A stretch of DNA of 57,847 bases, filler included, from Dugesia japonica (lineage: Eukaryota), in NCBI GenBank assembly GCA_001938525.1. It is 5 parts of 5 records of this genome, joined end to end, with 100 filler letters (N's around TTAATTAATTAA, not from the genome) between each part and the next. Parts side by side here need not be neighbours in the genome. Positions count along the whole stretch, not along the records: positions 1 to 13,657 come from MQRL01618326.1; 4 more parts are not named here. The stretch is one strand, 5' to 3'. The notes under the pieces are model-generated. The model had not been told where the DNA came from. It saw only the letters and a list, made by a program, of their open reading frames with translations, and made no database searches. Shown here in pieces: positions 1-46,487 of the stretch. Position 1 is the stretch's first letter; each line of letters begins with the position of its first letter. A program made the position numbers and the translations under genes.

Positions 1-1389
1 CTTTAGAATTTGCAATTTGTGAAGTTCTATGATATTGAATAAGTTGATTTCTGAAATCTTTACATGAATAGAATGAATTAGAGGCGGAGGTCGAATGGCT
101 TCGACATGAAAATGAGAGCTTGTGGCAATTAAAATTGGACTCTCCATCCACCTCATCGGGTATTCCATCTCCTAAGAAAGCCGCCGAACATTTGTTGATT
201 TATGTTTTAATGACGATTGACCCTATTTGTAATGATGATGTACAGTGTTTTTAAAAATATTATCGTTTAAAATTAATTTCATACAACCGATTTAAAATTG
301 TCTTCTATCGCCACACTAAACGAACCCAAATAACATGCAGATGGTGCGCTCATGCACTCTTAACGTCGGTTAAGAGTCACCGGGGCTGCCATCAACGTAC
401 TCCAGGACGAGTATATTAAATCCCAGTTGTGGGTTGTGCGTGATATAATTTTTGAGCCATATCACCCATGACACCAACACTATTAAAACAAAATTTAATT
501 AATAACATTTGTTTAAATTAATAATTTTTTTTATTAGCTATATAAATTTGATCATTTTTTTATAAGTTTAGCATGTAGTCGGTTTAAGTTTTTTATAACA
601 TTTGATTTGACTACATTTAATTTGTTTCTTGTTTTGTAAATTTTACATATTTATGGTATAATTGTTTATAAGTTTTATACAAGTTTATATATGTTTTTTA
701 TTTTTTCTTATTCGTTGTTACGTACTTATTATATTTTATATAAAGTCAATGCAATGTGTTATTATTGTTACAATGAGTTGTTGTTTTTCTGTAATTTTTT
801 CAAGGTTTTCATTTTGATGTTGTTATTTGTATATGTTTTAAACTGATTTTCTCAGATTTATGTTGTACATTTAATAGGTTTTGTAAGAAGTTGGTATAAC
901 TTTTTAAGTGTCCTTAGAAGTTTTTTACAATTTTATTTTAATCTTTTTTATTAAAGAAAATATTTATTTTTAGAACATGTTATTCAACCATCCAAATCGA
1001 TCTCTTTCTAGGCAGCCACTTGCGCAATGTCCTTGTCTACTTTCGTCACTTAAATGAGGGTACGAACGGTGGAAATTAGTACCCCTTCCCGATCAGCATA
1101 AGATTTTATGTCGACCATTACGCGACATGTTTGAGAACATGCCAAATTTGCTTCTCATTAACTTTGCGTTCCAATCTCTTAATTGATTGTTCTTCTGTTG
1201 TAAAACTGTGTTGGGTATTTAAACTCAACAAAGAGATTTGATGGTTAATATTTTAAAATTATAACAAACAATATAAGTAACTGATATTAAGGGTCCTTGA
1301 TTTTATTATGTAAATCGTGATGTTATATATGTAAATACAATATTATATAACTGTAATATTTTAATCAAAAGTATAGATATAGTAATATA

Positions 1390-1629
1390 TGTCACGTCCT
1401 TATATTAATAAACAAAAAACACTTTTTTAAAAATAATATTTTTGATGTATAACAAATATAACTTATAATTCCACACTTAAGACCTTATAATCCAGATATT
1501 AAATTTAAATGGGAATGCCGCTTTGGGAGACTGTTTTCCCAAGAAAATTGTCTGAAAACCAACAAAAACAGATCAGTATTTATACTGACTTTCCATACAC
1601 ACCATGCTATACATTCTCACTTAGTGACA
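1390..1629 (-). repeat. Candidate short LTR (about 240 bp)
   Basis: Bounded by inverted termini TGTCAC (1390-1395) and GTGACA (1624-1629), with a minus-strand TATAAA near 1580. No matching TSD is visible and there is no second copy in the window. Confidence 0.4.
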
Positions 1630-2189
1630 TTTATTTTTGTTAATAAAAAATCCAGCATACAAATAAATCGATTAAAATATCTAAAGATTTTCTATTCAAA
1701 TATAAAATTAAAATAAGACATGTACAAAATTTTTTTATACACATATAAATTTGGATATTATTTAAATGAAATACTGATAAATAAAGTCAATTAATCAAAT
1801 TTTATTTATATTATTCATGACCTTAAAATAAATGAAAAATTGTTCTTTTACAAAAAGATTAAATTAATTGTACATCAATAAAACAAAAATAAAATAATTA
1901 AAATAGAATAATATTGTTAAATGTTTAATTACGGGCACTGAAGAAAATCAAATGTTTAATCACAATTGTTAAATATTGTTTTTGAACGAAAATCGTCGAA
2001 TATTGAATATTAAATTGACGTTTGAATTGAGGCTACTATCGAATGTTGATCGAATATTGATGAGCTTGGATACCAACTGTTGAGCGTATGATGTTGGTAT
2101 GTATTGTATTTGCTATTCGTTATGAGTGTTGAGTGTATGATGTTTATATATACTATATGTGCTGCTATGTGTGTTATAGTCAGATTTTA

Positions 2190-2220
2190 ACATATGTACC
2201 CCTTCACAAAAGACGGTCCA
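2190..2220 (-). other. Candidate polypurine tract / 3' LTR boundary of gypsy element 1
   Basis: Minus strand reads GGACCGTCTTTTGTGAAGGGG-TACATA-TGTTAAAA. This is a G-run a few nt before a TGT start, the usual gypsy PPT-LTR layout, just downstream of the last cargo ORF. Confidence 0.5.
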
Positions 2221-3178
2221 TCATCTTTGTGTGAGTAAGAAACGTGGACAAGCGATGTCGTGGTAAGCAGAAAGTGTTTCGTTTGTTCAGGGTTCATTGA
2301 ATATACACACTGAGAACTCATACTCGGGGTCGATACCAGAAGGAGAGGTAGAAAGTTCTCTTGAAAATATATCTATTAACGATTGGGTATTTTTTCTACT
2401 AAATATTCTTGCCGGTTGACCTTTTCGTGTACGACTCTCTTCGGCTATTGTTTGCAACTCTTTGTTTCTAACTTCGGCTTCATTTTGCACTTTTTGGAGT
2501 GAATTGTTATGTAGTTGAGATGTCCTAATTGACTAGGGGGGCTAGTTGTCTCAATGCTTATAGTGATTATTCGTATGCAGGTGCCATTGGGTATAAATGT
2601 GAATGTAGATTCTGGATGGGTATTAGCGTCCACTACTTTTTCTTTTACTTTCTAAATAAATCCACCTATTCTGAAGGGAATGTTTTCTGGTTTCCTTTGT
2701 GATAACATTTGCGTTTGGTCATAATTTAGATATGTTTGTGGGTATCGGCATGACTGGTAAAACAACTTATTAGATGGCATCGTTGTGTTATGGGAAATCA
2801 AATTGTATCTAGGTTGGTCTTGAAGGGCTTGAGCAAGTTGTTTCGTAAATTGGAATCTATCTTGAATCTTTATATCATAAGGGAATCGGGTTCTCTCTTT
2901 CTTTAAGTCTCTGATTAGAATGCTTTTTTGTTTTGGCGGTAGATGGCAATATCCTATACTACGAATATCGTTATTAATCTGCCACATTGTTTGAGAACCC
3001 TTTAGATATTGATAGCTGTATAATTACTCGTTGGATCTCATCGTTCAGGGATATTTCGTTGTTGTATAAAAGGGGTTAAGTGTGCTATCCTTTCACAATT
3101 ATTGTGTGATAGTTTAATTAGTAGTTCTAAGTGAATGAACGTATTTATTTGTGGCTCACCAACGTAGGAAAATTCAGT

Positions 3179-3565
3179 TCATTTTAAATTATCTCGGTTG
3201 ATGACAAAGGATCTACAGGTAAGACAAGGAAGGTTATCAGAATGATTAACATTGAAGTACTGAGTTATGCATACTAGACAAAAATAATGACCACAGTGTG
3301 CGACTCTAGGTAGCATATGGATTTCAAAACACAATATGCAATCAGGTTTGCCGTTAATAAGAAATGTGATAAGGGCAACATCTTTCCCTATGTATTTAAA
3401 TGGATGTTGAATCCCTCTGTGCTTTTCGTGTAATGTAATGCGTGCTTTGTTTTGTATGTACAATTCTCTGATCTGGTCCGCTAGATCCATTCTGAAATAT
3501 ATATTATTATAATCATTTATGCATATTAATAATATTGCTACGTAAACATATTCTCTTCCTTCCAT
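3179..3565 (-). pseudogene. C3HC4 RING-finger domain, RNF10/Mag2-like
   Basis: CILCFEIHMLPRVAHCGHYFCLVCITQYFNVNHSDNLPCLTC gives C-x2-C-x11-C-x-H-x2-C-x2-C-x14-C-x2-C. The flanks (RELYIQ upstream; DNLK*TEFSYVGEPQINTFIHLELL downstream) resemble RNF10 as recalled from memory. Confidence 0.8.
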
Positions 3566-4800
3566 TCTCTTTCACTGTGATTAAACGGATTTTCTTTTTT
3601 CCGAATCGTAACTGCATATTTATGGATAAATTTCTTTTTAGTTGTTATCTACCTTCCATTGTACGCTTTCCTATTTTCACTGTGTTTGTCATCTCAATAA
3701 GACCACCACTTGGTTTGCTTAACTCGATATCTAGTTTCTTTTCTAATGAGTCATCACTATCCTCATCTTCGCTATCTGTAAAGTATGGCATAAACTGAAG
3801 ATCTTCCAGTACCTGTTGTGTGGTGAGTTCCTGCAATTGGTCATCTGTTTCGATGTTCATCCAATATTTTGTAAGACTATTTTCGCTTTGTAATGTTGTA
3901 TCTCTTTGTTTATTTTTTGACGTACTAGGAATCCTCACAATTGATGCATTTTTTATTGGTTCTATTTCATCATCTGATGCGGAAGAATTTACCATTTTGT
4001 CTATTTCATCGTCTGATGCATCAATATCTGTTTGTACACCTTTTGGGTTCCGTCTTATCGTATCTTCAATCATTCTTTGTTGTTCTTCATCATCATTGTG
4101 TAATCTGAGTTTTTCAGGGATACTCTCCTATTCTGATTCTGTGCTAGAATTATCTTCTGAAAACTGCATTAGGTGCTGTCTTTTCATATCCTCTGACCTT
4201 CGTCTTTGTTCCTTCTTATCATGTTACTTGGACTCATATTCTGACTCAATGATAGAACTAACTTTATCGTTGGTTCCTTCTTCGTCATTTTCAGATTCAG
4301 AGTCTAATATCCAAATAATGCTAATTGGTTTTTGTGTTTCTCTAGGCATTATTTCTGCTAACTCTATCATTTCACCCACTCCTGGCTTTATTGCATTAAT
4401 ACTCTTGAGATATATAGAGTCCTTCTAACTGTGTATTATTCTCATTTGTTTATACATAATTTTGATATGCGTAACCCTTTTAGCTATTGATTGATTCATT
4501 CTTTCTTTTACATTCTGCAACATGTCTTTAATTATTTATTCGTGTCTCATCGGCTTAAACACTGCTTCCAAGAGATTAGTAAACTTTGATGTTTTCATAT
4601 TTGGTGTGTATTAAAACACCATCTACCTTCTGCTAGGTCTAGGATACCCATAACGTGTCGATGGTATCTATAAAGTATGCATCTTTATATTTCTCTATTC
4701 TTTCCTGATAAAACTCCGTGCTAGGCGTATCAAAATGCTTGATCTTTTCTCGTGGACATATATTTTCGTCCAACATAATCTTACATATAATAGTCATTAT

Positions 4801-4890
4801 TTATTTATAATAGTCATTTCAAGTACATGTGAGTTAAAATATGTATTATTTATAATAGTCATTTCCAGTACATGTGAGTTAAAATATGTA
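4801..4890. repeat. 45-bp tandem duplication (in frame, 15 codons) inside the extra ORF
   Basis: ttatttataatagtcatttc(a/c)agtacatgtgagttaaaatatgta occurs twice with one mismatch. Confidence 0.9.
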
Positions 4891-5219
4891 TCTTTAACGA
4901 CTATTAATCCAATATACACCGTTAGCTGTTCTATGTCCTCTTCCGTTAATTTGGCATATTTCAAAAATGATATATGATTGGCGAAATCTAGATATTAAAC
5001 TTCGCAATGTCCCTGTATTGCTGTGAATGTCGGAAAAAGTACAGGAATGCAATCGTGATAAATCAGTTCTATACATAACCCAGCTGGGATATTTTGTATT
5101 TCAACTCTAACTGTATTCACTCCTTGATCAATTTTCCCCTGTAATATTAGAGTACTGTTTTCTATGACATTCATTTCCCGTTTTTGGTATGTGAACCTTA
5201 TTGGAGTTTTCGTCACATG

Positions 5220-7114
5220 AATCCCAATCCTTTTGATGTTTATTCACGAAAACCGCCAATCTATTAAATAATGTACTGTTAAATCTTTCTACTAACCCAT
5301 CTGCTTGTAGGTGATAGGCCGTTGTATCTATTTTTTGATATCGAACATACTTGTTACTCGTTGTATGATTTCGTTGAGAAAACTTTTTCTTCTGTCTGAT
5401 AATAACTTTCTTGGCGCTCCATATTTGTAAATTATTTTCTCAACTAATAATCCTGCTACTATTTCTGCTGTCTCATCTTTTGTAGGAAACGTTTCTGCTC
5501 ACTTTGTGAAGTAATCGTTGAATACTAATATATGTTTATTACCTTTTATGCATAGGAAATCCATTGCACATCTTTCCATTGGTGAGCTGGGTAATAGCAT
5601 TGGTTGTAATGGAACTTTAGTTTTCGTGTCTGTATTCTTTCCTATGGCAAAAACGCTACATGCTTGACACCATTTTTTCACATCATCTTTAATATTATCC
5701 CAAAAATACTTTTGCAACAATCTCGATGTGGTTTCTCTACTTGACAAATGCCATCCGAGTGCTCCATCATGATATTGTAATAGTAATAACTGTTTCAGAG
5801 AATCTGGCACGATCATCAGATTTATGATAGCCAAGCATTCTTTTTCGATTGTTGAATATCTTGTATCTGCGCCTTTTAACATTTTACTGGCATATGCGAT
5901 GACATAATCTTTATTTTTCTTGTCTTCTGGATTGAGTACTGCTCCCATGACATATCCGCTTTCATCTGTCATTAATATGAATTATTTCGTAAAATCTGGA
6001 TATATTAAAATTGGAGCTGTTAATAATCGTTGTTTTAATGTATCGAAAGCTTCTTGTTGCTTTGGACCCCATGTCTTTTAAGGTTTCTTTGACTTTTACT
6101 TTCACCTTTAGTTTTCATACCTTTTGTTAATTCTACTAATGGTGCAGCTATATTTGCAAAGTTTTCTATGAATCTCCGATAATTACCCACTAGAACCTTA
6201 AATCCTTTTAACTGTTGTACACTTTTTGGCACAATATGTCCGAGAAACAAAACACTTTTCTCTGCCAATTTACATTTTGTGGGTTTTAATTTAATTTTTG
6301 CTTTTCTAATTCTAGACAGTACATTTTCTATGTTAATTAAATGTTGTTCAAACGTTTCGTATGCTATCAGTATATCATACAAATATACAACTGCATGTTC
6401 TACACCTGTTAGTACTGTGTTCATCAATCTTTGGAACGTAGCTGGTTTATTGCATAATACGAATGGTAATCTGAGAAATTCATATAATCCATCATTGGTA
6501 CAAAATGCTGTTTTCTCTCGGTCTTCCTCCTGTATTGGGATTACATTATAACCTTTATTAGACTCCAAGCTTCCAAAATCTTGCGTATTCATTAGTTTGT
6601 TGAATTATTCATGTATTTTTGGAAATGGATGTGTATATTTTTTTGTAACTTCATTGAGTTTTCTATTATAAAAACACATCTGAATTTTTCCATCTTTTCT
6701 TTTGACTGGTACTATTGGTGATGCCCATTTGGAAAAACTATCCCGTATGATTTCATTCGCTTTTTGTTCCGCTACCTGTCTTTTTATCTCTGGTCTCAAC
6801 GAATATGGTGCTACATATGGTCGCTGTTTTATTGGTCTTGCGTCACCTGTATCAACTATATGTTTTATAATATTTGTTCCTCCCATATCAAATTCATGTT
6901 TGGCGAATGCATCTTCATATTTATCCAATAACTTCTGTAACTGTTGTTTCTGACTCATTGTAAGATCTTTATTGGTTATTTTTGCTTTCTCGTAATACTT
7001 TGTTTGTTTTGGTTTTATTAACTCTTTGTCAGTTAGTTTTTTAGTTTTTTCCTGTTTATCCAGTAAAATTTCGAATAGTTCATGATTATTTAACTGACAT
7101 ACCTTTTTTCTCAT
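5220..7114 (-). mobile_element. pol: Ty3/gypsy pol pseudogene 1 (RT, partial RNase H, integrase)
   Basis: RT motifs PIKQRPY, WASPIVPVKRKDG, KTAFCTNDGLYEFLRLPF and VYLYDILI (YLDD mutated). RNase H motifs TDESGYVMGAVL and YSTIEKECLAI. Integrase H-x6-H...YFW...C zinc region, then MDF, SDR and GLVERFN. Order RT-RH-INT is gypsy type. Many stops and internal deletions. Confidence 0.95.
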
Positions 7115-7319
7115 TTTATATAACTTTGATAATCAGATGAAAATTGCTTATTTTTTCTCTGTAAATTTATTCTCTTTGGCTGTTCCTCAACTACAATTTC
7201 AGATATTTCATATTCATTTCTTTCCTGTTGTCTTTCCATCATTCGCTGATAGAGTTTTTTCATATCTTCTAATTCAATTCTCAAATTTTCATAAGCTTCA
7301 TTGTTTATTATTTCAACTG

Positions 7320-8370
7320 CATTAGTTTTTCTTGTTTCTGGACTAAATGATACATCCTTTTCAGAATACGTCTAGAATCATTTGGTTTTTTTCTACATAC
7401 TCTTGCTATATGTCCGTATTTATTACAATTGTAACACTTTATTTGCCCTTTCTTATTCAATTTATCTCTTCCCTCATTTGTGAATTATGGGCTCGAACTT
7501 CTTCTATTATCATATCTTTTTAGTCTATATCCTCTGTTATATCGATTATATCATTTTGCTGGACTTGCATTCCTGTCATTATTTCTACCTGGGCTGGAAT
7601 TTCTATTGTAGTTGTTATAATTTCTTCCAAGACTTGAATTTAGATTATAGTTGTTATAGCTTCTTCCAGGATTCGAATTTTAATTAATATTATTATAATT
7701 TCCTCCAGTACTTAAATTTCTGTTGTAATTGTTATCATTTTTAAAATAATAGTCTTATTTAAATTTTACATCTTGATCTTTTCTACTATCTTGTAGTTTT
7801 TGATACGCTTTTCTTATTTCCTTCCATGATGTCTCCTCATTGCTCAGTTCACTTACATATATTTGTTTGGTTTTCTCTTTATGTTTAGTATTCGCCTAAA
7901 TTCTCCTTGCTTTTGTTGTTAATTCTTATAAATCTTTATATTCTGCTGCAAATAACGCTCTTCGAATGTAATTATGTGTCCCATTTACAAATTGGTATTC
8001 TATTATGTGACCGATGTTATCACCCTTGACAAATGCCTGTTTTGCCAGCTTTGTTAGTTCATAGATATATTCGCCCACTGTTTCTTTCGATGATTGCATT
8101 CTGTCCTGAATTTTTCAATACAAATTCTTTCTAATTCACTTAGGACTATTATGCTTTTTCTTATTTTTTTTATTAAATCTCCCCAATTGTCATGTTTATT
8201 ATTTATATTTTTATAACACTTTATTGCATATTCTTTTAAAAGGGGTAATCGTTTTATCAATTCTGCTTCTGTCTATCCACAAGCTGTAGCACAAATATGC
8301 ATATATTCAAAATATTCGTCAAATTCTTCGGGTTTTCCTGTATAAAATGTTATGGGCAATATATTCAACG
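7320..8370 (-). mobile_element. gag: Ty3/gypsy gag pseudogene 1
   Basis: N-terminal LPITFYTGKPEEFDEYFEYMHICATACG*TEAELIKRLP, an Asn/Arg-rich linker, and a CCHC knuckle KCYNCNKYGHIARVC at about 7395-7440. Confidence 0.85.
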
Positions 8371-11029
8371 TCGCGAGGTTTTTCTTTCTTTAAGTGTTGC
8401 ATTTATCATACTCAGCATAGTTCTAAACTGTTTCTTGATTTGTTCATTTGTGTTATGATGATATGGACTCGAAACCCTGAGGGTAATCCCATGTTCAGTC
8501 GCAAAATCTTTCTTTGATTTAGACTCAAATGCTCTTTCACAATCAACTTCAATTTCTCTTGGACACTCGAACTTTAATATCCACTTCTTCAATATTGCTT
8601 TCCGTGTGGTATCTTCATCTTGTCTTGTCATTGCTATCAAGGCTTAATACTTACTGCATTAGTCTATTATACCAAGAACATATTTTTACGACCTCTTGTC
8701 TCCGGCAGTGGTCCACACACATCTATAAATAACAACTCAAACATTTTGGCTGGCTGCGTCTTTTTTGTTTCTTCCTTCGTTTTTGTTGTCAAAACTTTAG
8801 CCTTCTGCCATGTTATACAGCTTCTGATAATCTCTTGTACTTTGTTTCACAAATGTTTCGCGTTATATTTATGCTTCATATACACTGCACCTTTTTCTGC
8901 TCCAGTATGACACAAAAATAGTGTATCCTCATTATAACATCTTATACTTTATCCTCAGGTATCTATGTTCCCTCATTATTCTCACCAAAATTACCTCGTT
9001 TTTCTTGATCATCTATTGTATTTAACATCCTTGTTTTCAATTTTCTACTTTTGGGATTTACAAGTAACATTAGACATTGTGCACATATACCGCATTCATT
9101 CATTGACAACATATTCGCATTTGTATGAAGCGATCCTTTTCATTATTCCAATTTTATATCTAAACTGCTCGAATAATTAATCCAGGTTTGAAACTGTGAT
9201 GTAATCGGCTTCTTGATATTTAGCATAAAGTGATGGCTTTATGGTCTGTTCTGAGGATAAATCTCTTCACATATAAGTAATGTTTGAAATGAATACAAAA
9301 ATAGTAAATTGCGAGCAATTCTTTCTTTGTAGTACAATATCTTTTCTCATGACTCGTCATGGCGTGTGACCCATATGAAATTACACTTTCTTGTCAATTG
9401 TTCTATTTTTGAGATAGTACTACACCAATCGTATCAAAACTCGCATCCGTGTTTAAAATATATCCTCTATTTATATCTGAAAAACATAATATCGGAGACA
9501 TCATTAGTGCTTCTTTCATTCTATTAAAAACTTCTTCTAATTCATTCACCCATTCAATTTTCTTGTTACTTGACCCACTACACAACTGTTACAGCAATCT
9601 AGCTTTCTTTGAATAATCTTTAATAAACTGGCAATAGTAATTGCAAATTTTCAAAAAGATTCTCATTTTTTTTAATGCAATATGGTTTACCAAAGTTTTT
9701 AATTGCTTCTATTTTAGTTGGATCTGTTTTAAGACCTTCTTCACTGAAAACGTGTCCCAAAAATTTGATCTCCTTTCGCATAAATTGACATTTCTCGGAA
9801 TTAACTCTTAGACCAGCCTTCTTAATTTCTGTTTATACTCTATTAATTATTTCATAATGTTGCTCCTTTGTTTCGGTGAATATGAGAATATCATCTAGAT
9901 AAACCATAGCTCCTTTTACTTTTCCGATTACTTTATTCATCATTTCCTGGAACGAACCTGGTGCTGCTACAATTCCAAATGATTTTCTATTGAAACAAAA
10001 TTGCCCTTGTTTGGTCGAAAAAGTCGTTTTTTCTTGAGAATCTTCACTGAGTTCTACTTAGTAGTATGCATTTCCCAAGTTTATTAAGCTAAAATATTGC
10101 GTAACTTCCAAAGCATTTAGCATTTGTTCACATTTCGGATAGAAAAGGCTTGCTCTTCTGTTATTGCATTGAGCTGTCTAAAGTCTAAGTATAGTCGTAA
10201 ATCTTTTTTTCCTTTTTCCAAACACAGATTAATGGTGTATTCCATTGCGAATTACATTACATACTATTACCATATAAATTCTTGATAGCTTCTTCAATCT
10301 TTTCCTCTAGATTCATTGGTTGGCCATACGGTTTTATGTTTATTGGACCTCCTTGAGTGATTATTCGATGCTTCGTTAAGTATGTGCATCAAATGTCCGA
10401 TTTATCCCCCATAAATAAATGCTCATTATTCTGAATAATCGCAGTCAATCTATGACCTTTGTTAATTTCTGGAATCTCCATTACATNTCTNAATCGTTCA
10501 CTCGTCTGTATCTGCCTTCCAAATTTTGCCTCAATGTTGCAAACAAAATTTTCTCGATAATTATTTATGTCTGCCTTGTACTTTTCTGAAGATGATACCC
10601 AAAATTATTCTGAAATTTCACTCCACCAATATGATCTGTTATTAATTTCTCTACTATTATAAATGTTATTTCCTTGCACATCTCTGAAACTACAACTTTG
10701 ACACATATGTTTCCAACCGTTTCCAATGAGCGGTTATTCGAGCAATGTAATTGTTCCTCGCTTTTCTCTAACATTGTTTCTCCGAGTCTATTAAATGTTT
10801 TCATGCTCATCACATTTATTCTTGCTCCTGTATCTAACAAACAATCAAACTTTCTACCCTTGATCATCACTGAAATGCTGGGTCTCATTTGCATTTCATC
10901 ATACAAAATTTCTGAATTCTGTTTCTCTTCAATTATTCCTATCATTTCTGCTTTTTTAACTTCCGCATCAATGAAATTTTCTCTTTTTAGGAATCTGTAA
11001 ACTTTTTCTCTCAATTTACTTTGTTTCAT
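8365..11029 (-). mobile_element. pol: Ty3/gypsy pol pseudogene 2 (protease, RT, RNase H, integrase truncated)
   Basis: Protease LLDTGARINVMS; RT AMVYLDDILIF (~9880-9910); RNase H ILNTDASFDTIGVVLSQ; integrase fragment 8365-8640 with SSPYHHNTN. Frameshifted throughout. Confidence 0.95.
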
Positions 11030-11820
11030 CTCATTTCTCGGCCTCTTGAGAATATTCGAACGGTATCTCGTTTAATGGATGTCTCCGACCAAATTCTTTA
11101 CAGATTGAGCACTGCTTTTTAGGTATTCTCTTCTAGGATCATCGTTTTCTATTATGCTCTCAGAAAATCTCTCTTCATTCTCGTCATCAAATTTTTCTCG
11201 AATGGCTATATTGGTTTTGTCCGACTCCAATATTTTGTTTGTTTTCCGCTTTTAAAATTGTATCTTCTCTCTCCTAGTCTAGCTTTATTAATGTTTGAAT
11301 AACATTCTTCGGCTCTGTTACCTGGTCTTTTACATCTACCGCATACAATTTCTGTGCACATCCTTATGACATGACCAATCTTAACACACCCAAAATATTT
11401 TGGTGGTTTCTTGTCTGGGTATTTTCTACTAAAATGTCCTTTTTGTGAAAAATCCAACATTCCACATAAGAATTCTTTGGATACTCTATTTTTTGTATGC
11501 CCATAACTCTGGCATGTCCAACACTGTGGTTATGTTCTTTTTGTAACTCTCTCAATATTTTGTCTCCTTTCTCCGAAACTTTCTCAGCGTGTTACACCAG
11601 CGTAACTCTTTACTACGTTAATAGGTTCTCTTCTTTCTATTTTTTCAACTAAAGATAATGTTTTTTTATGTCTTCTACTTTCTCCAATTTTCGCAGGGTA
11701 ATCTCTTCTTCTGCTTTTTTACTATTTGCACAAATTATTAGCATTTTTTATAAGATTTTTTCTTTCGTCAGCTCTCTATTTGCTAAAAATTTATAGACAA
11801 AATCTTCAACTTTTATGAAA
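11030..11820 (-). mobile_element. gag: Ty3/gypsy gag pseudogene 2 (zinc-knuckle region)
   Basis: Three degenerate CCHC knuckles (CWIFH/SQKGHFSR, FGCVKIGHVIRMC, CGRCKRPGNRAEEC) directly upstream of the protease. Confidence 0.8.
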
Positions 11821-13657
11821 AAACTATAACAAAATTATTTGGTTAAACAAACAAATTAAAATCCATCTTTCAATTGGGAATTATTTTCTTATAAATTTAA
11901 AATTTTTAATTAAAACTTTATTTAAAATACTTCGAAAATTTAAGCAAATAATTATCTGTTATCTAAATTTTATTTACTTTTTACTTTTAAAAAATTTAAA
12001 AATAAAACTTCATTCTCAACTAAAATATTTAATTTTTGCTTTTACAAATTTTAAAAATTAAACAACATTTGCTACTAAAATATTTAATTTTTAATTTCTT
12101 GATTAGTTTTTGAATTCCAATTCATCAAATAAGAGATTTTTTTAAAAAAGTAATTCCCAATCAAGCATAAATAATTTCAACTCGCTTCAAAAACGCTCAC
12201 AATAGCAATTATATTTCTTTAATTGCAAATATTTCATAAATTATCCTGGACAACTATTATATTTCTCTTATCACAACTCTTTCATAAATGGATGATCTCG
12301 TGAAGCGAAGAACTGAACGGTGTCAGCCACCACTACTAAAAAAGCTAATGAGTAATGATCGTTACCTGAGTCCCTCTTTATAGTGGAATATATGATTTAT
12401 AAAAATAAAATGATTCAAATTACTTTTCGATTTGTTCTGATCCTTTTATGTTAAATGCGAGAGAATACTACTAGACACTTTTAATACGAAGTGAACATGA
12501 GTTTAAAAATGAAAATTTTAGTCTGATTTTACAGAAATTTGCTTCGCCTTTTATACCTCACTGTATCGTCAAATTTTGACAGATTTAGTTGACAGATACA
12601 CTTCAGATTTCTGTCAATGCAAGAAATTGTACGTTGTTCACCAGTAGCTTCTACAGAGATGTCCAAATATGGGTATGATTATTGTTAATTCTGTAGAGGA
12701 TTATTGTACTCACAGATGTTTTATGTTTTTTCCTCAAATAGAGAGGCTTAAAAAAGGATAATTTTCTTTAAAAAAAATAATTTTCTAAAACTTGTAAGAG
12801 TTTTAGAAATAAAGATAACTACATAATCACATGCAAGTATTAACATATCAACCCTGAATTCTTAAATAAAATCATCAGACCTTCTTCTACATATAATTTT
12901 CCTTTTATAATTATTCCGGATTCATTATAAATAATAATATTTATTGAATAGTAATAATTTTAATTATTTTTATCGATAATAATAATAATTTCACATTTTT
13001 ATATTGTTTATAAAATTATAATAATAATACAATACGTGTACTTAAATCTGACTAATAGTTTATTATTTTATTATTTATAATGATCATGATGATTTATTCT
13101 GTTTGCCCCTATAATTTTTCTCTAAAATATCAAAATATTTTAATATAATTATTTGTTTTAATCTTTCCTTTTCTCTCATCAATATAGTTTTAGAGAAAAA
13201 ATAATTAAGAACAAGAGCGACAAGGAGCAAGTGCGAGAAGACAAGAGCAAGATAGCATTTTCTAATTTACTTGAAATAAATAATTTTATCTGAAATTTAC
13301 ACGAAGTTGCTCAATATTTTATGAAATTTTCATGAGGTCGATAAATATTTTACGAAGTTTACATGAAATCAATAAAGTTTATGTAAGAAAATTTATGTTA
13401 GAGAATTGGAAAATAATTTTAAAAATCATGTGAACCGAACATCATACATAGTGTTTTCATTAATTTTTGAAAAGAATATTTCCAATTATTGGATTTTGTT
13501 TAAATAAATAATTATTTTTATTCAGTTATTTATTTGGCCTTGACATAAATCTGATTTCAGTCATCTTATTAATCAATAGCAAAATATCATGTGTTAATTC
13601 TATTAATTGTTAAATAGTTTTATATATAGTAGCTATTGATTATAATTTTATTTGGTT

Positions 13658-13757
13658 NNNNNNNNNNNNNNNNNNNNNNNNNNNNNNNNNNNNNNNNNNN
13701 NTTAATTAATTAANNNNNNNNNNNNNNNNNNNNNNNNNNNNNNNNNNNNNNNNNNNN
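13658..13757. other. Artificial scaffold-join linker
   Basis: 44N + TTAATTAATTAA (13702-13713, stops in all six frames) + 44N. Confidence 0.97.
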
Positions 13758-13987
13758 ATATTATATTAATTATAATGAAAATTTTTGGAATAAATTAATT
13801 AATTTTATTCGGGAAAAAGATCTTAATTACAAGAAAATCGGTTAAAAGGGAATATCTTTGCTCAGTTATATCGGAGGAGGCCCGGGAAAGAAAATTCAAA
13901 AAGGAAACAACTCGGGGGAATTGCTTTTCATAACAGGAAGGTGTCACATCTATCAGAAAGGTCTGAAGAAAGGGGGTAAAGAACGAG

Positions 13988-24587: not shown

Positions 24588-24687
24588 NNNNNNNNNNNNN
24601 NNNNNNNNNNNNNNNNNNNNNNNNNNNNNNNTTAATTAATTAANNNNNNNNNNNNNNNNNNNNNNNNNNNNNNNNNNNNNNNNNNNN
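24588..24687. other. Artificial scaffold-join linker
   Basis: 44N + TTAATTAATTAA (24632-24643) + 44N. Confidence 0.97.
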
Positions 24688-25400
24688 TTAATAATATTAA
24701 TTAAATATATTAATTAGTTGTCCTAATACAAATTTGAAAGAAACTTTTTAAAAAAAGTTTTAGTTCAAAAAAAATTAATTTTATAATTTTGTGTGATTAG
24801 TTTATTTTTGAAAAATTTTTAGAAAAAAAAAGAAATTTATAAAAAATAACATGTATTTAAAATAACATAAATTATATCTATAAAAAAAGACAAAATAAAA
24901 ATTTTTAAAAATTTGCAAAAAATTACAAAAATTTAATATTACAAAATTCTAAATATAATATATCTAAAATACCTAAAAGACTTTTATATATTAATTAATA
25001 AAAAATATTATTTTTGAAATTGTTTGAGTTGAGTTGATTTAAGAAATAAAAATCATTAAAATTTTAAATTAAAAGTATAAAAAAAATAACCAATAAAATT
25101 TCGATAAAATATAAAGAATTGAGTACTAAAGATCTATTGTATTGAATATCTCAAGAAGTCAACATGTTCTTGAAGAAGACTATTGTAAAAAATTTGAACC
25201 TTTTTACAAATAAATTTTATTTTGATCGAAGCCTTTTCTTATTTNNNNNNNNNNNNNNNNNNNNNNNNNNNNNNNNNNNNNNNNNNNNNNNNNNNNNNNN
25301 NNNNNNNNNNNNNNGTAATTATAAAACATTTTTTAAATCTTAATTTAATTTTTATAATTAATTTTTAATTTTATACAATTTAAACTATTATAATCTATTT

Positions 25401-26574: not shown

Positions 26575-27535
26575 ATGCTTAATGTAGAGTCATTATCACG
26601 AATTTATTTGAAATTTATCTCAAACTGCTTTAATGAAAACAATATAGACAGACCCAAAAAATCCAGCAGGATTAAAAGGATTTGAAAAGTTATGAAAATT
26701 GACAAAAAGCTCAAAAATCGAGACGAGACAGTGGTTATTGAACTAGTTAGCGTACAGTCTGAACAAGCCAATGTTAAAAAGATTCCCAACAAGACCGTAT
26801 AAAACCTATGGGATTGATGCCTTATGGCAAATGGATTTGATGGAAACAATTCCATATTCAAGAATTAATAAAGGTTACAAGTATATTTTAACAGGTATCG
26901 ATGTATTCAATAGATTTTCAAGAGCTATACCTATACAATCAAAATCATCTATCGAAATGAAAACTGCAATCAAGATTATGTTTAACGATGGTCATCCAGA
27001 TAATTTACAAACTGATTTAGGAAAAGAATTTTATAATTCAAAAGTTGAAAATATTATTAATCATCTAAAAATTAACCATTATTCTGTATTTTCATAATAC
27101 AAAGTGGCATAAGTTGAAAGATTTAATCGAACATTGAGAGATGCATTGAAAAAGTACTTTTGTGCATAGTGGTAATAAGACATGGATCCATGTATTACCG
27201 AAAATAATTGACAGTTATAATCATACAAGTCATAAAGGATTAAATGGAGCAAGACCCGTTGATGTATCATCTGACAATGCAATGAAACTATGGTTATTGA
27301 AACAAACACCAAAAGCAATCATGAAACCTAAATATAAAGTTGGTGATCATGTAAAAATCTCAAAGCTATCAGCTTCACCATTTATCAAAAATTTCAATAG
27401 TAATTGGAGTGATGAAGTATTTCAAATATCTAAAATCAATACCAAACAGAATCTAGTCATGTATTGGATTAAAGATCACGAAGAAAATAATATTTTTGGA
27501 AAATTCTTTGAACAAGAACTACAAGTCATGGAACA
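26575..27535 (+). mobile_element. Polinton/Maverick c-integrase pseudogene
   Basis: WQMDLM, NKGYKYILTGIDVF, LQTDLGKEFYN, VERFNRTLR, WIHVLPKIIDSYN, YKVGDHVKIS, NWSDEVFQI and GKFFEQELQ match the Polinton integrase pattern. It has stops and frameshifts, and no chromodomain is seen before the sequence changes near 27540. Confidence 0.93.
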
Positions 27536-28067
27536 TGACTTGAGCTGCGTTTTTTTAACCATGATTTTTGTGATTGATTTTTTTGGGAACAAAAAATTTT
27601 TAATCGGATCAGATTTTTTTTGATCTGATTAGTTTTTTAGATCCTGAAGTTGTGTGTGTATTTTTAAATTTTAAATGTTCTGTGTGTTTGGGTTGCTAAA
27701 GTGGATTTTTAAAAGTAGGTCAAGTTGTGTTTGTGTTTATGGTTTTGTGTGTGTGTGTAAAAGACTGGAAAAAGCGGGGAGGAGTTGCTGGAGATCTTGG
27801 AGATAATTTTTGTGGGATTTTGAAGATTTATTTGTTGTTGGACAAAAATTTGGTCTATATATTGTTTAAAGGACTTATGTGTTTGGATGGATGGTTTTCA
27901 CTACAAGGGTAGTGGCACACGGTTACAGGCGTATTAGTTATCGTGAGTGGCTTTTGTTTTGGATGTAGGTTTTTATGTGGTTTATGGAATTTGTTAGTTG
28001 ATGGCTTGTTAGAGAGGTATTGCAATAGTAAAGATGTTGGTAGTCGAATAAGCTTTGAATTTCTATT

Positions 28068-33502: not shown

Positions 33503-33602
33503 NNNNNNNNNNNNNNNNNNNNNNNNNNNNNNNNNNNNNNNNNNNNTTAATTAATTAANNNNNNNNNNNNNNNNNNNNNNNNNNNNNNNNNNNNNNNNNN
33601 NN
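33503..33602. other. Artificial scaffold-join linker
   Basis: 44N + TTAATTAATTAA (33547-33558) + 44N. Confidence 0.97.
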
Positions 33603-34214
33603 GAACATATTTTTTCAAAAATTTAGACTATTCACCCAGACTCCCATAAAAATTCATTCAAAAAATTTTAAATTTTTCATATTATTTAAAAAACATGCCC
33701 GAATTTCTAAAAAACTCCCATAAAAAATTATCCCTCCTAAAAATGCCTTAAAAAATATTGTCACTTAAAAAGCCTACAAAAAATATTGCCAGTAAATACA
33801 CAGGGAAAAATTCTAAAATATTTCCCAACTAAATACATTGGAAGATTTAAAAAACAGTTACAGTTTAAAAAAGCCTATAAAAAATTTTCCCAACTAAATA
33901 CATTAGAAAAAATATTGCCAACTAAAACCACAGGAAAAAATTTTCGCCAACTAAAATCATTTTTACCGCCAAAAAATTATTGTAAAAAATATTTCCAATT
34001 AAAAATTGCATAATAAATTCAATTGATGGATTAAAATTATTGTAAAAAATAATTCCAATTAAAAATTGCATAATAAATTTAATTGATGGATTAAATTACC
34101 GATGATGTAATTACATCATAGATTAACTATCAAATTTCAGATAATCGCACTATTTACATCACTAATCGGGGGGGTTCGCACAAAGGCGGCTATACCCGCC
34201 AATATCCCTCTACT
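33603..34214 (-). mobile_element. Polinton-like TIR / right terminus
   Basis: Ends ...TATCCCTCTACT (minus strand AGTAGAGGGATA). Contains subterminal ccaactaaa/aaaaagcct repeats and a ~60-bp tandem duplication at about 33973-34092. Confidence 0.55.
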
Positions 34215-37989: not shown

Positions 37990-39650
37990 TCCAAGAATCA
38001 GTAAAACATTATTTAGAATTATTTAATATTTTAAAAATTAGATTAGGAATTGTATTGATATATTGGAATACAAAGAAATGAAACAACTGATGTTTATTTT
38101 ACATACTCAACTGAAATAATTTAAAATGAAGAAGAATTAATAAAAAGTATAAATTTAATTTATAATGATTTAAGTGAAAGAATAGTAGAATTTGAAGGAC
38201 ATGAAAGTGGATTAATTTTACAAAATATAGATGCAATAGATATGTTAATTGGAGAATATGAATCACTATTAGGTGCGACTTGGATAGAATTACCATTTAC
38301 TTCAAAAGTTATATTTAATGAAAATATGGCAGATAATAAATGTTTCTAATGAGGAATAATAAAGTCATTAAAATATAATAGACAAGATTATAGTGAAATG
38401 TTATATTTCAATTCAAGAAGTAAAAAAATTTAATAATGATAATTATTTTGTAAAAGATAATATTTTTGAACTTTCCGAAACTATTAATGCATTATTAGTA
38501 GGAACCCATTGATATTGATAATATTCATTATACAAATCTATTTATATACAAGAATCTTAACAGTAGGTCTGCTAATCATTTTATATTTATGTAACTGTTT
38601 TTGTAAATAGTTCTGAAAAAAAATTATTTCCATGTTTAAATTGTAGAATAGGATTTAGAACAAAATGATATTTAGAAATTCATCATAGATAATGTATCAT
38701 AGATAATAGATAAATACATTTCTTAACCAAGATTATTTTTTTAATAAATTTCATTTTAAAAATAAAGTACCATTTGTTATTTATACAGGCTCTGAATGTT
38801 TTAATGAAGGTAATGTTAAAAGCGAAGCATAACAAAAACCATTATCGTATGGAATCTATATAAAAAGTAATTATAAAGATTTAAGAAAATCAGAATTATT
38901 ATCATATTATAAACATGATGCAGCAAAGCATTTTATTTCTTTAGAAAAAGAATTTAGAAAATTATTAAGAAATTATTCATATGAATAAAGTTTTAGAAAA
39001 ACCAGAAAAATGTTATTGTTATTATTGTCAAGTTGAAATAGAAAAATCAGCTATAGTAGCAGATCATGATCATTATAATGGAGAATTTATTGGATAGTTT
39101 TGTAAAAGTTATAATTTAAAAGCAAAATGTAATTTTATACCAATGTATTTTCATAATAGAAGTAAATACGATATTCATTTAATATTTACTAAGCCTTTTC
39201 ATAATGAAAAAATAAAAAAGAAAAGAAAAAATGTTTTGTCCAAAAATTATGAAGAATATATTTCCCTTCAAATTGGATGTATTAGAATTTTAGATAGTTA
39301 TAGAATGATCCCTAATTCTCTAGAAAATTCTAAATAAATATAATTTAAAATCTTTAAAAGGAATTTATCCATATGATTATATTTCGACGGAAAATAATAG
39401 ATTTGAAAAAATTGTGCCAGAAACTCAATTGCCATCACATGATAATTTTTTTAGTAAATTAAAAAAAAATATAACACAAGATGGATATAAACAAGCACAA
39501 TTAAATTGGAATGAATTAAAATGTAAAAACAAGAAAGATTATACAATGAATTATATGAAAATTGATGTATTACTTTTAGGAGATGTGTTTGAAAATTTCG
39601 GAGATATATCAATTCAAGAATATCAAATAGATCCAAGTTATTTTTATTGA
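37990..39650 (+). mobile_element. Polinton protein-primed DNA polymerase B pseudogene (N-terminal and exonuclease region)
   Basis: In order: FEGHESG..., GATWIELP, DNKCF, FPCLNC..F...LEIH, VPFVIY, CYYC...VADHDHYNG (endonuclease VII-like), FIPMYFHNRSKYDIHLI, ILDSYRM, KGIYPYDY, ETQLP, YMKIDVLLLGDVFENF. Truncated before the polymerase core. Confidence 0.9.
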
Positions 39651-39900: not shown

Positions 39901-41817
39901 ATTACTATTTCTATGTCAATTTCTAAAATTTCACATCCAGCACTTGATGCATTCTGAGCAACATGAACGAAACATCTATTATCGATGTTGGATTTGTCTT
40001 CAGTAGGTAGATGTTAGCGCACCAGATCACTACCCCGAATAAGGGTCTAGTCCTATGCATTCACATCAACTGAGTTATCTACTGGTTATCGTGGATTTAT
40101 TGATTTAAGAATTTTGAGCCGATCAGATTTTTGATCAGATCAAATATTTGGCGAGAAATATTAATTTTGTTTCATTTTCTTTGCTCTTTTATTTTTTTTC
40201 TTTATTTTCTTTATTTCTTTAATTATTTTGGTTCCGATCATGTATTTGAAAAAGTTTTATAAATCTGTATACAATGCTATAGATAACTATTTACAAAAAT
40301 GTTGCTGTTGATTACAGTGACGAGTTATCACGTTTCTGTTTAAAAGATGTACTGTTGCGAGTTTTTGTTGGATTGTGATGAATTTTGGTTTGAATAAAAG
40401 ATTGAGTTGGGGTGTTTGAGGGTGTTAAGTTTTTGTAATTTTTAGGTGATGGTGTTGGTGTGTATGTTCAAGTATATATTTAAAAATGAAAATTGTAACA
40501 GAATGGGTGTAGGGTTATGATTTTTGTGTTTTGGTGGTATATTTGAGTTGATCATCGAAATCGGTCTTTAGGCTGTCAAAGGTAACTATGAGCTGAAATG
40601 TTTGTGTGTTGCATGCATGCAGCTTTTGTGTTGCAAAAATAAGTTTCAAGTTTAAATTTAAAAATTTAAATTCGATGCCAAGGAATTAGAAAATATGAAA
40701 TTTCTCATGAAAAATTTGGTAAAGCCTTTCAGGTTTTGTTAGTTGAGTTTGGAAGACTCAACGTATCATTAATATCAAAATTCGAATTCATTACAACACT
40801 ATTGAAAATCNNNNNNNNNNNNNNNNNNNNNNNNNNNNNNNNNNNNNNNNNNNNNNNNNNNNNNNNNNNNNNNNNNNNNNNNNNNNNNNNNNNNNNNNNN
40901 NTATTTATTTAAAATTTAATTTAATTTATTTCAAACATTTTATTTATTTATTTAAAATTTAAGGCCATTTCTTTCTCCTTGAAAATTTTTTTCATTAAAA
41001 ATTTACTTTATTATCCAATCATCATTTTGAAATTTTTTAATTGAACTTAATTTATTTAAAATTAATTTAATTTATTTCAAACATTTTATTTATTTATTTA
41101 AGATTTTATTTTNNNNNNNNNNNNNNNNNNNNNNNNNNNNNNNNNNNNNNNNNNNNNNNNNNNNNNNNNNNNNNNNNNNNNNNNNNNNNNNNNNNNNNNN
41201 NNNNNNNNNNNNNNNNNNNNNNNNNNNNCCGTTTACTGAAAAGTTTTAATTTATCATTTAAAATAAATTTTTGTTATTTAAATTCTTCATCAAAACTTTA
41301 AAAATATGATCAACAATTACACAAAAATTTAACTTGGATTTTTAACACACTTACAGGCTTAATCCGCCAACAGCTGCAATTGAAATTTATAAAGAAGAGA
41401 AAAAAAGAATTGCAAACAGATTAAACTTTGATTATGCAAATAAAAGCCAATATCAAAATACAAGCTTTGTCTATAACTTTAGGGAAACAAAGACAATATC
41501 GAGTTATTAGAGTTCACAACAATGGTAATTCTTTTTATTTATTTTAAAAAATATTAATTATTAGTTTAGATTTGGTCTGTCAAACAAATTAATTTATCAT
41601 TAATGATAAATGCTTTTCTAATTTTACAGCAGCTATTTACAGGAAAAAACTGTCAGTATCACCAGCTACAATATTAAATGTACAGTTTTCATTTTTCTGT
41701 ACTTCTCGAGCTCGATGTACTATAATTGGTACATCAGCAATTTGCTTAACTCTGTTTCAGATTTACCAATGTAACTAGGACGATCTAAGCATACTGACTC
41801 TTTATTCATTAATGCCA

Positions 41818-44128
41818 CTAGTGCTGCTCTAAATTTTCTGAAAATATCAAAATATTATCCATGTATACCATCGTTCCTCTCAATCTTCCTAATACTTTTG
41901 TCATTAGTTCTTGAAACATTCCAGGTGCTGCAGCTACACCAAAAAGCATTCTTGTGAAAAAAATAATTTGCATTAATCGTAGAAAATGCTGTTTTCTCTT
42001 GTGAATCTTTATGTAACAGAACTTGATAATATGCATTTTCAAAATCAATAGTACTAAAATATCTTGCACCACTCAAATAGTCCAGTATTTCTTCTACATC
42101 AGGCATCGGAAATATCTGTCTTTCTGTGTTTGCATTCAGTTTTCTAATATCTAGACCCAATTTAATGTGTTTCCTTTCTTTTTGCCAAACACATATTAAC
42201 GGAGTTTTCCATTGCGAATTATTTGACAATAAATCCATTGTCAAACAAATTTTTGATAGCTTCATCGATCTTATTCTCTAATTTCTTTGGTTGTCTCCAT
42301 GGTTTTGTATTTATTGGTTCTCCATTTGTGATTATTTGATGTTCTGCCATTGTTGTTCTGCCGATATCCCAGTTGTCGGCCATGAATATTTCTTTTTGAA
42401 TCATTATTACTTTCTCTAAATTTTTATTTGGCTTGTTAATCAATATTTTTATTGCTTTATGTACTCTCTCTTTATCCGTTGTATTTCGTTCATACTTTGC
42501 TTCTAAATTACAAAGATACATTTCATTATCCTCACATTTAGTCTCTCTCAGCAGTTGGAATCCAAACTTTTTCTGTAATTATATTCCTCTAATTAGATCT
42601 GGGTGTATCTGTTTCACCCCAATGAATTTAACTGCTTTGCTTTTATTCTCGACTTTTACTTCTACCTTTATCGTACCTACGATTTCAAGCAGACTAGTAT
42701 TGGCACATGTTAAATTGTCTTCACTTTTTAATATATTGACTTCTCTTAATCTTTTCAATATTCTCAAGCTCATCGCATTAACTCTTGCTCCAGTATCTAA
42801 CAAGCAATTAACTTTTACGTTTTATATTTCAACTGTTATACTTGGTCTACGTTGCATCTTGTCATAACTTATTTCTTGTCGTTTTATCTCTTCTATCGTC
42901 AGAATTTCACAATTATCTTCTTAATTTATACCATTGATAATCTTCGGTTGGCTTCTAGTCAATTCTTTCTTTACGAACTTGTAAACGGTTTCTTTTACAT
43001 CATTGTAATCATCTACTCGTTTATCTTCGCTTATTTTATTTATATAATTATTTATACTATTTTTACTATAATTAACAATATTGCGATTTTTTTGGGATAC
43101 TTAATTCAACGGTCCAATCAGTCGGAGCTTGGACATTTGGGTATTCATCTTGATAATTATTTGACCCGTCATTACAATAATGACCTATGTCTTCTCTACA
43201 TTCACAATTTTTCCCATTTTCCTCAATTGAATTTCATTCATCTTTGGGTAATTATTCGTATTATTTGAATAATATCTTTGTTTGCCATTTCCGAATTATT
43301 TTCTGGCCTTTTCACTTTTGTATTGATAACTAAACTGTTTTTTCATATTTGTGTAACAGTCTTTTGCGTGATGGCCTTTCTTGTTACATCTTGAGCAACT
43401 AACTTTGGTACAATCTCTTCTTAAATGTTGTTCAGATCCACAAGCATAGCACTTTCTTTTTCTTTCTTGACAATTTCTGCTTACATGACCTATTTTGTTA
43501 CNNNNNNNNNNNNNNNNNNNNNNNNNNNNNNNNNNNNNNNNNNNNNNNNNNNNNNNNNNNNNNNNNGTGTTGAAATTTCTTTGTTCTGGGCTTCTGCGAA
43601 CGGCATCTCTGTAGTTATGAACTACATTTATTTCTTCAGTTTTTATTTCGTTTTATATGTGTTCCCATTCTTTGATTGTTTTAAATACATCGTCTACTTT
43701 TTCTATTTTTCCTGATTTGATTTTATGCTTAATCTTTGTGTCGTTACAACTATTCATTATTAGCTCTTTTGTTAAGTCATCTTTGTTCCATTTATGAGCC
43801 TTTAACTTTTCTACCAAACCTTCATGTGCTCTCCATTCCTTTGATAATTTAGAGCTTCCTCTATATCTTTAATCATTGTTGATGGACTAAAGAAAGCCTT
43901 TCTGAATCCTACCATAAACCCCAATGCTTCGCCTTCATTTTCATAGATTTCACGCAGTTCTTTATTTATGAAAGCAGCTACAAACAAACGTCTATGGCCT
44001 TTCTTTGTTCAGGCAATATAAAAATATTACGTTGTCTTCAAAATAAATTGTTCAACATCATAGCTTATTTTAAAGATTCCAGGGTTCATTGTTTCTTTTA
44101 GCAAATCCAATGATGCGTTGGTCCCCAT
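41818..44128 (-). mobile_element. Ty3/gypsy gag-pol pseudogene 3 (gag, protease, RT truncated), related to element 2
   Basis: Gag start MGTNASLDLLKETMNPG at 44128 with knuckle remnants at about 43350-43500. Protease LDTGARVNAMS. RT WKTPLICVWQKE, SQEKTAFS, GVAAAPGMFQ, VYMDNILIFS. Strongly similar to 9840-10900. Confidence 0.93.
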
Positions 44129-46387: not shown

Positions 46388-46487
46388 NNNNNNNNNNNNN
46401 NNNNNNNNNNNNNNNNNNNNNNNNNNNNNNNTTAATTAATTAANNNNNNNNNNNNNNNNNNNNNNNNNNNNNNNNNNNNNNNNNNNN
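46388..46487. other. Artificial scaffold-join linker
   Basis: 44N + TTAATTAATTAA (46432-46443) + 44N. Confidence 0.97.

Follow-up and report, generated by a model that had tools for sequence, protein, structure and literature searches.

A Ty3/gypsy retrotransposon of Dugesia japonica appears to carry, at its 3′ end, a shortened gene of the RNF10 family. The stretch analysed here (57,847 nucleotides with filler; the window) holds a dead copy of this element on its minus strand. We hold with moderate confidence that the gene is common to diverged copies of the element, that its source was likely a host mRNA, and that in intact elements it likely served as an accessory ubiquitin ligase, translated from a spliced transcript. 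The RNF10-like gene begins with an ATG at 3490 and extends to at least 2490, just 5′ of the polypurine tract (PPT) and a 278-bp LTR. Its parts and those of the element are listed below in reading order, with reference to P0127, an intact, unnamed protein of 386 residues, and to the contig sets X1 and X4.

7400–8370, minus strand: decayed gag with a CCHC knuckle, abutting the integrase of a second gypsy element (sequence, Pfam).
5221–7132, minus strand: decayed pol with RT, RNase H, and integrase zinc finger and core (Pfam RVT_1, RT_RNaseH, Integrase_H2C2 and rve).
4500–5219, minus strand: broken ORF remains behind the integrase break (no Pfam family in three frames).
3645–4500, minus strand: broken acidic low-complexity ORF, out of frame with the RING gene (no Pfam family).
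3492–3541, minus strand: GT-AG intron of 50 nt, separated from the start codon by one base (skipped in record 2 of X1, kept in DNA contig record 13 of X4).
3011–3490, minus strand: first half of the RNF10-like gene, with start Met at 3490, possible pre-RING strand, RING and post-RING strand (residues 1–160 of P0127 aligned gap-free, 33% identity).
3215–3340, minus strand: C3HC4 RING core, from first Cys at 3340 to last Cys at 3215 (8 of 8 zinc ligands).
2490–2918, minus strand: RNF10-type C-terminal domain in a second frame, with its FYQ block at 2768 (residues 200–343 of P0127 aligned; 0 of 500 shuffles as high).
2287–2532, minus strand: possible tail of the RNF10-like gene, charged and helical, in a third frame, uncertain (best of 115,528 positions for the RNF10 coil block).
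2199–2207, minus strand: polypurine tract, 6 nt before the LTR (sequence).
1915–2192, minus strand: candidate 3′ LTR of 278 bp with TGTTAA...TTAACA ends (sequence); an alternative end at 1967 fits too, and ATTAAA lies at 1955–1960.

The preliminary description had set the RING between a gypsy integrase and a PPT-like motif, and this setting holds. Gag, RT, RNase H and integrase lie upstream on the same strand in Ty3/gypsy order, and the purine tract is followed by an LTR candidate with TG..CA ends, the whole spanning ~6.5 kb from gag to LTR. The integrase match stops at 5221, the C terminus of the enzyme being lost at a junction at 5220/5221. The 5′ end of the element is replaced by another element; no matching 5′ LTR, primer-binding site or target-site duplication was found, there being no second copy of 1915–2192 within the window, and no protease was found in this first element. 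In the region where env would sit, neither three frames of 4400–5221 nor one frame of 3540–4520 matched a Pfam family. A 56-nt duplication at 4788–4843 does not occur in other copies. DNA contigs cover the LTR 2–5 times as deeply as the bins of the RING gene. A motif inside the LTR candidate, TGGTATCCAAGC at 2064–2075 (minus strand), resembles a primer-binding site and may reflect chance or a shorter LTR. An ORF piece at 4874–5243 (minus strand) is strand-rich and has no Pfam or NCBIfam match; in the genomic runs its DNA is covered ~10 times as deeply as the RING gene, so it may represent a better conserved accessory domain.

The surrounding DNA is AT-rich (17–37% GC by 2-kb bin), with many repeats and transposon debris. 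A second, different gypsy element occupies 8365–12700 on the minus strand (CCHC gag, aspartyl protease, RT and integrase), its integrase joining straight onto the gag of the first; X1 bins at 8248–8700 are 182–383 deep from diverged copies, as against 3–54 elsewhere. A third gypsy remnant at 41800–43700 (minus strand) is 68–73% identical to the second. Fragments at 26747–27623, 39324–39650 and 44756–45229 include an integrase core (Pfam rve, E = 6e-10) and a piece of protein-primed type DNA polymerase B (E = 0.013), and are presumably Polinton/Maverick-like. Runs of N with a TTAATTAATTAA core at 13650–13760, 24588–24694, 33503–33610 and 46388–46490 are assembly linkers; none lies in 1–10,400.

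The layout of the gene differs from the long, intronless, broken ORF between integrase and PPT that had been proposed. The coordinates given, 2987–3565, take in the first half of the gene only, as homology reaches to at least 2490. The RING gene has its own start, ~50 residues ahead of the RING, with room for ~400 codons, and its frame is not that of the acidic ORF upstream; splicing of the acidic ORF into the RING frame is ruled out by phase. The word intronless remains apt for the coding part, which is colinear with X1, but not for the 50-nt GT-AG stretch that X1 skips. Stops interrupt this copy at 3179–3181 (just behind the RING), 3038–3040 and 2652–2654, its frame changes between 3011 and 2918, and probably changes again near 2530–2490. 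Given the stops and the frame change, this copy is, as its sequence reads, dead: no full protein is possible, and at most a 103-aa RING peptide could be made. A Pfam DUF2883 match on 2652–3023 (E = 0.003, below cut-off) was set aside as chance in view of the P0127 alignment, and a PDB search with the C-terminal frame gave chance matches only.

The intact C3HC4 RING that had been reported is real. Pfam zf-C3HC4 (PF00097) matches the minus-strand ORF 3179–3571 above cut-off (21.3 bits, E = 2.4e-4), and the eight ligands are present at C3HC4 spacing with every Cys and His column kept, as they are in P0127 and in P0170, a second protein match of 319 aa. Of 19 columns invariant in RNF10, 11 are kept; altered positions include Pro, Thr, Trp and Leu, among them the Pro after the seventh ligand, which is present in P0127 and P0170. 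Word-index protein searches with the RING ORF as query gave no match, and the Atlas returned unnamed RING clusters with low recognition.

Direct comparison of this RING with RNF10 is not diagnostic. RNF10 references came from metagenome contigs scanned for a motif (117 loci, 19 ORFs of at least 270 aa), and the family name was checked by a profile search in which most of at least 120 matches were named RNF10. The best of the 19 single sequences scores 27.9 bits against the RING ORF, with TRIM39 at 26.9 bits. On an RNF10 RING-plus-flank profile the window reaches 37.9 bits (44.3 when read through with X), whereas BRCA1 reaches 50.4; the preliminary description had expected RNF10 as the best match, and this was not cleanly borne out. 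A quick tree (71 rows, 99 columns) leaves the window ORF in an open fork and puts P0127 and P0170 beside the RNF10 clade (SH-aLRT 80). Since BRCA1 scores higher on the RNF10 profile and the tree does not place the window ORF, the RING alone does not identify RNF10 by sequence.

Similarity to RNF10 beyond the zinc ligands had been quoted as four peptide pairs. The human segments given there agree with the human RNF10 sequence (P0088), and the four window peptides exist; individually the resemblances are weak. The pre-RING FxQANCQF block ranks 368 of 115,600 positions, and an ungapped RNF10 block scan did not find the DPD..W motif in the window; its Trp is present in P0127 and P0170. Behind the RING, a DLK turn at +45 and a strand at +64 residues lie in frame, where family members have them at 44–46 and 63–65; these blocks rank 542 and 177 of ~115,600 positions. 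Further downstream lie the FYQ block at 2768, second of 115,546 positions, and the coil block at 2502, first of 115,528. Blocks B2, B4, B5b and B6 were not found in the window by direct block scan, nor was the HLP block of the RNF10 C-domain recognized. A collinear chain of blocks without the RING scores 31.7 bits, a value that none of 109,125 null anchors and none of 1000 column shuffles reached, where the blocks were picked after the FYQ match had been spotted by eye and the null anchors overlap. HMMER and HHalign with the RNF10 C-domain on the window were not significant (E = 1.6, rank 2 of 2298; 10 of 462 null segments as high). The long N-terminal region and C-terminal tail of RNF10 (700–890 aa in full length) are absent from the window gene, which by its sequence is a derived, shortened RNF10 member and not orthologue-like.

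The link to RNF10 is made in two steps, through P0127. Searching 1.84 billion proteins in full by HMMER, with the natural ORF 3182–3490 as query, gave 65 matches, in which P0127 ranks fifth overall, behind four multi-RING proteins, and is the best single-stretch match (E = 7e-10, query 8–103 on 8–103). P0127 and the window gene align from the same first Met without gaps over residues 1–160 (3490–3011, 33% identity), and the alignment resumes in the next frame with residues 200–343 on 2918–2490; the sum E of both alignments is 3e-28. This similarity does not reside in the RING alone: with the RING removed, shuffles scored as high in 0 of 500 cases for the post-RING part, 0 of 500 for the C-domain and 3 of 500 for the pre-RING part. 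The middle of P0127 is not significant against the window, nor is its tail against the charged stretch at 2287–2532 (244 and 213 of 500 shuffles as high).

P0127 in turn carries the FYQ...HLP C-terminal domain of RNF10. On the RNF10 C-domain profile it scores 20.6 bits and P0170 11.5 bits, with 0 of 1000 shuffles as high for each, and 6 of the 65 HMMER matches fit that profile at E ≤ 0.0013, namely P0127, P0170 and four longer RNF10-like proteins, one so named. Overall P0127 is ~20% identical to RNF10. RNF10 ancestry is thus supported by sequence through the bridging protein and the C-terminal domain, and not through the RING; the earlier reading stands as to ancestry, while the RING by itself lends it no support. 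On the strength of the P0127 alignment and of the RNF10 C-domain in P0127 and P0170, we take the window gene to be a broken member of a family of compact proteins that derive from RNF10 and lack its long tails. An AlphaFold model of P0127, built on a 35-row RNF10 alignment and leaning towards the alignment supplied, is confident at the RING and the C-domain (pLDDT 78, pTM 0.71). Foldseek searches with it (PDB, BFVD) gave RING matches only, none at E ≤ 0.001; the model lies within ~1.8 Å over 55 columns of RING domains solved with E2 enzymes, a weak match (E = 0.01).

The nearest Atlas cluster to P0127 (score 0.95) contains 186 unnamed one-RING proteins of ~399 aa, commonest in arthropods, and the same cluster description ranks sixth for the window RING ORF; it may represent a wider family of compact RNF10-like proteins. 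The viral contigs searched held no relative of the RING ORF or P0127. P0170 matched 15 loci there, all of them RING proteins of giant viruses that lack the C-domain, and a viral donor of the cargo is therefore unsupported. Three RNF10 genes on genomic contigs (L006, L053 and L062) are intronless, with 749–892 codons, and their flanking ORFs, judged by eye, include nothing retroelement-like.

The gene may have a spliced leader of its own. The stretch skipped in X1 begins with GT and ends with TTTCAG, and the joint cannot slide. This evidence comes from one contig of X1, a set of 48 million letters of contigs whose kind is off record and which we took to be RNA-like because it shows no excess depth over pol. 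X1 contigs are identical to the window at 1932–2803, 2791–4007 and 4381–5380. Such a leader fits a separate 3′ gene transcribed in the sense of the element. Across four raw RNA runs (10.5–13.6 million records each), 43 reads fell on 7 kb and, in all four, 0 on 2144–5211, so that the RNF10-like gene was silent or absent in these four samples. Of 73 distinct RNF10 contexts, 25 have an intron immediately after the RING, which the window gene lacks; its absence is what capture from an mRNA would predict, unless the host gene had already lost the intron.

Contigs of three genome-sized DNA runs (X4, X6 and X7; 680–930 million letters) were compared with the window at 80% identity. In all three, diverged contigs ~83% identical to the window contain the region close to the PPT. 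Among the matches listed (32 of ~32,900), one diverged contig covers 2431–3309, including most of the RING, with 149 other letters and 1 gap; two more cover 2486–2997 (82 other letters, 0 gaps) and 2431–2972 (89 other letters, 0 gaps), another spans 2230–2615 to within ~25 nt of the PPT, and further pieces among these matches have 5 to 32 gaps. The stop at 2652–2654 is replaced by different letters in 5, 8 and 7 contigs of X4, X6 and X7, respectively. The bin of the RING is 59–128 deep where window-identical contigs are ~10 deep, depth not being a copy number. The RING therefore occurs more than once; the preliminary description had named a single instance, unlinked to gypsy pol in other copies, as fatal to its case. 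Because diverged copies keep the RNF10-like region close to the PPT, we read it as cargo of the family, and the sequence supports capture of the gene into an LTR element. Of the capture originally claimed, the multi-copy region adjoining PPT and LTR is upheld; among the matches listed, no contig joins the RING to pol in another copy.

This last point bears on the possibility that the 3′ unit (ORF remains, RNF10-like gene, PPT and LTR) belongs as cargo to another LTR family and met this pol in the present copy alone, by deletion or recombination at 5220/5221, in which case the cargo claim would stand and the link to this pol would fall. We regard this as possible, if on the unlikely side. Pol bins are ~100–300 times deeper than RING bins, depth drops from ~10,000 to 30–800 across the junction, the match of X6 record 20 ends at 5185, and most of the pol family leaves the window sequence at 5221, as do three RNA reads each in X22 and X23. 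This copy has also undergone other deletions and is fused to the second element at ~8370. Loss of the integrase tail by deletion within a single element would look alike, however, and pol stays above the 80% cut-off while fast-evolving 3′ regions fall under it. The junction as such is genuine, as an X1 contig (record 3, 4381–5380) crosses it with 0 differences from the window. It is unlikely, in our estimate, that a compact host RNF10 paralogue merely spread as a passenger without use, P0127 being such a host gene. That this copy is dead and silent in the four RNA runs would suit a passenger, as would P0127 being known as a protein alone, and the 186-member Atlas cluster of compact proteins; the available text of PMC7264820 describes LTR elements that captured host genes passively. 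Three pieces of 512–880 nt at ~83–84% identity with 0–1 gaps, among the matches listed, speak for use instead, as do the one stop not common to other copies and the splice acceptor placed directly at the start codon.

The two remaining alternatives concern what the cargo is or does. A decoy, which would bind ribosomes or partners of host RNF10 without ubiquitin transfer and so block 40S surveillance, could account for the altered RNF10-invariant positions in the RING, including the Pro after the seventh ligand, and for the lost tails; we think it improbable, given the eight zinc ligands kept in the window, P0127 and P0170, the Pro kept in the latter two, and the weak resemblance of the P0127 model to E2-bound RING structures. 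A generic RING-HC gene unrelated to RNF10, with outlying similarities arising by chance, is largely refuted and very improbable. It draws on the undiagnostic RING, the weak direct profile matches and the tree without placement, and is opposed by the two-step link through P0127, by the RING-free controls (0 of 500 and 0 of 1000) and by the collinear chain of blocks.

Under the explanation we prefer, a captured gene serving as an accessory ligase, a host RNF10 would have entered the element through RNA, as the missing conserved intron behind the RING suggests. Selection on the cargo may be read from the long gap-free alignments between ~83% identical copies, and from ligands kept while the rest drifted to 20–33% identity. 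Expression would proceed through a spliced internal message with its 3′ end in the LTR. The kept ligands suggest an active ligase, the kept C-domain may preserve the old docking site, and loss of the N- and C-terminal tails could permit escape from host control. RNF10/Mag2 is described in the text available to us as a ubiquitin ligase for uS3 and uS5 that acts in initiation quality control, ubiquitylating uS3 on stalled initiation complexes and leading to decay of the 40S subunit and its 18S RNA (PMC12008924). The folded core of RING and C-domain would accordingly be expected to dock on small ribosomal subunits, add ubiquitin and shift initiation quality control in favour of the element. Ligase activity and a ribosomal target are conjectural readings of the sequence, the substrate being the least certain part; it may also be a new one. 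As it is the zinc ligands that have been preserved, an active ligase seems more likely than a dominant-negative form. We left an effect on Gag-Pol frameshifting out of this scheme, as asc1 and mbf1 mutants are reported to show unchanged Ty1 frameshifting (PMC6301793, as far as available). A bolder form of the proposal, which we put forward tentatively and think rather doubtful, is that an LTR lineage carries the stripped-down RNF10 as a true accessory gene with a spliced message and hijacks 40S initiation quality control of the host, P0127 and P0170 being intact members that elements of other hosts carry. In that form, if true, it would be the first selfish element known with a ribosome-surveillance ligase, besides providing a natural minimal RNF10.

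LTR elements commonly have additional genes at the 3′ end, and RING cargo is already known from the planarian element Burro1. The accessible parts of the sources describe GDSL/DEDDy ORF3 as an extra 3′ ORF in rotifer LTR elements (PMC5408684), sense aORFs with spliced mRNA in plant elements such as Bagy2 (PMC7264820), and 2-ODD/m6A demethylase cargo in orchid elements (PMC9289625). The present cargo differs in being a relative of a ribosome-surveillance ligase, a kind unnamed in those parts of the three papers. In the literature, mostly open-access and at abstract level, we found no paper on RNF10/Mag2 as LTR cargo; repeat-library annotations or Burro1 supplements could already list such cargo. 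One RNF10-plus-transposon case in the source as available is a Helitron promoter driving bat RNF10, which is not coding capture (PMC4778049).

The closest element is the planarian giant gypsy Burro/GYPSM1, which has likewise captured ubiquitin-pathway domains including a RING (PMC6431247, in the part available). Burro exceeds 30 kb and encodes a 4,873-aa polyprotein with IAP-type RING and BIR, MATH and ankyrin domains (PMC6431247, PMC13465017, in part). The RING and BIR cargo of Burro1, as cited in the available text of PMC13465017, is reported to affect planarian stem cells. The window element differs in that ~3 kb of an ordinary gag-pol survive, with an RNF10-type gene standing apart at the 3′ end; Pfam matched no BIR, MATH or ankyrin domain in the window ORFs scanned. 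If true, an RNF10-type cargo would tie the success of a retrotransposon to ribosome quality control, a connection on which the literature covered here yielded no paper.

With RNF10/Mag2 itself the gene shares the RING-HC, the post-RING strand at +45/+64 and the FYQ C-terminal domain, and possibly the pre-RING strand, in the same order. It differs in length (~390 aa, as against 700–890) through the missing N-terminal low-complexity region and C-terminal tail, in its low similarity (~20% identity by way of P0127, 11 of 19 invariant columns) and in lying, as a broken copy, within an LTR element. P0127 and P0170 resemble it in length, start point and domain order, at 33% identity over the first 160 aa for P0127, but are intact and known chiefly as proteins, P0170 from a contig of 7,015 nt. 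Leaving the element aside, these compact proteins display the conserved core of RNF10, a RING with an FYQ domain. The ribosomal species that RNF10 recognizes is described as unclear in the available text of PMC12008924, and a natural version of 386 aa makes that recognition testable.
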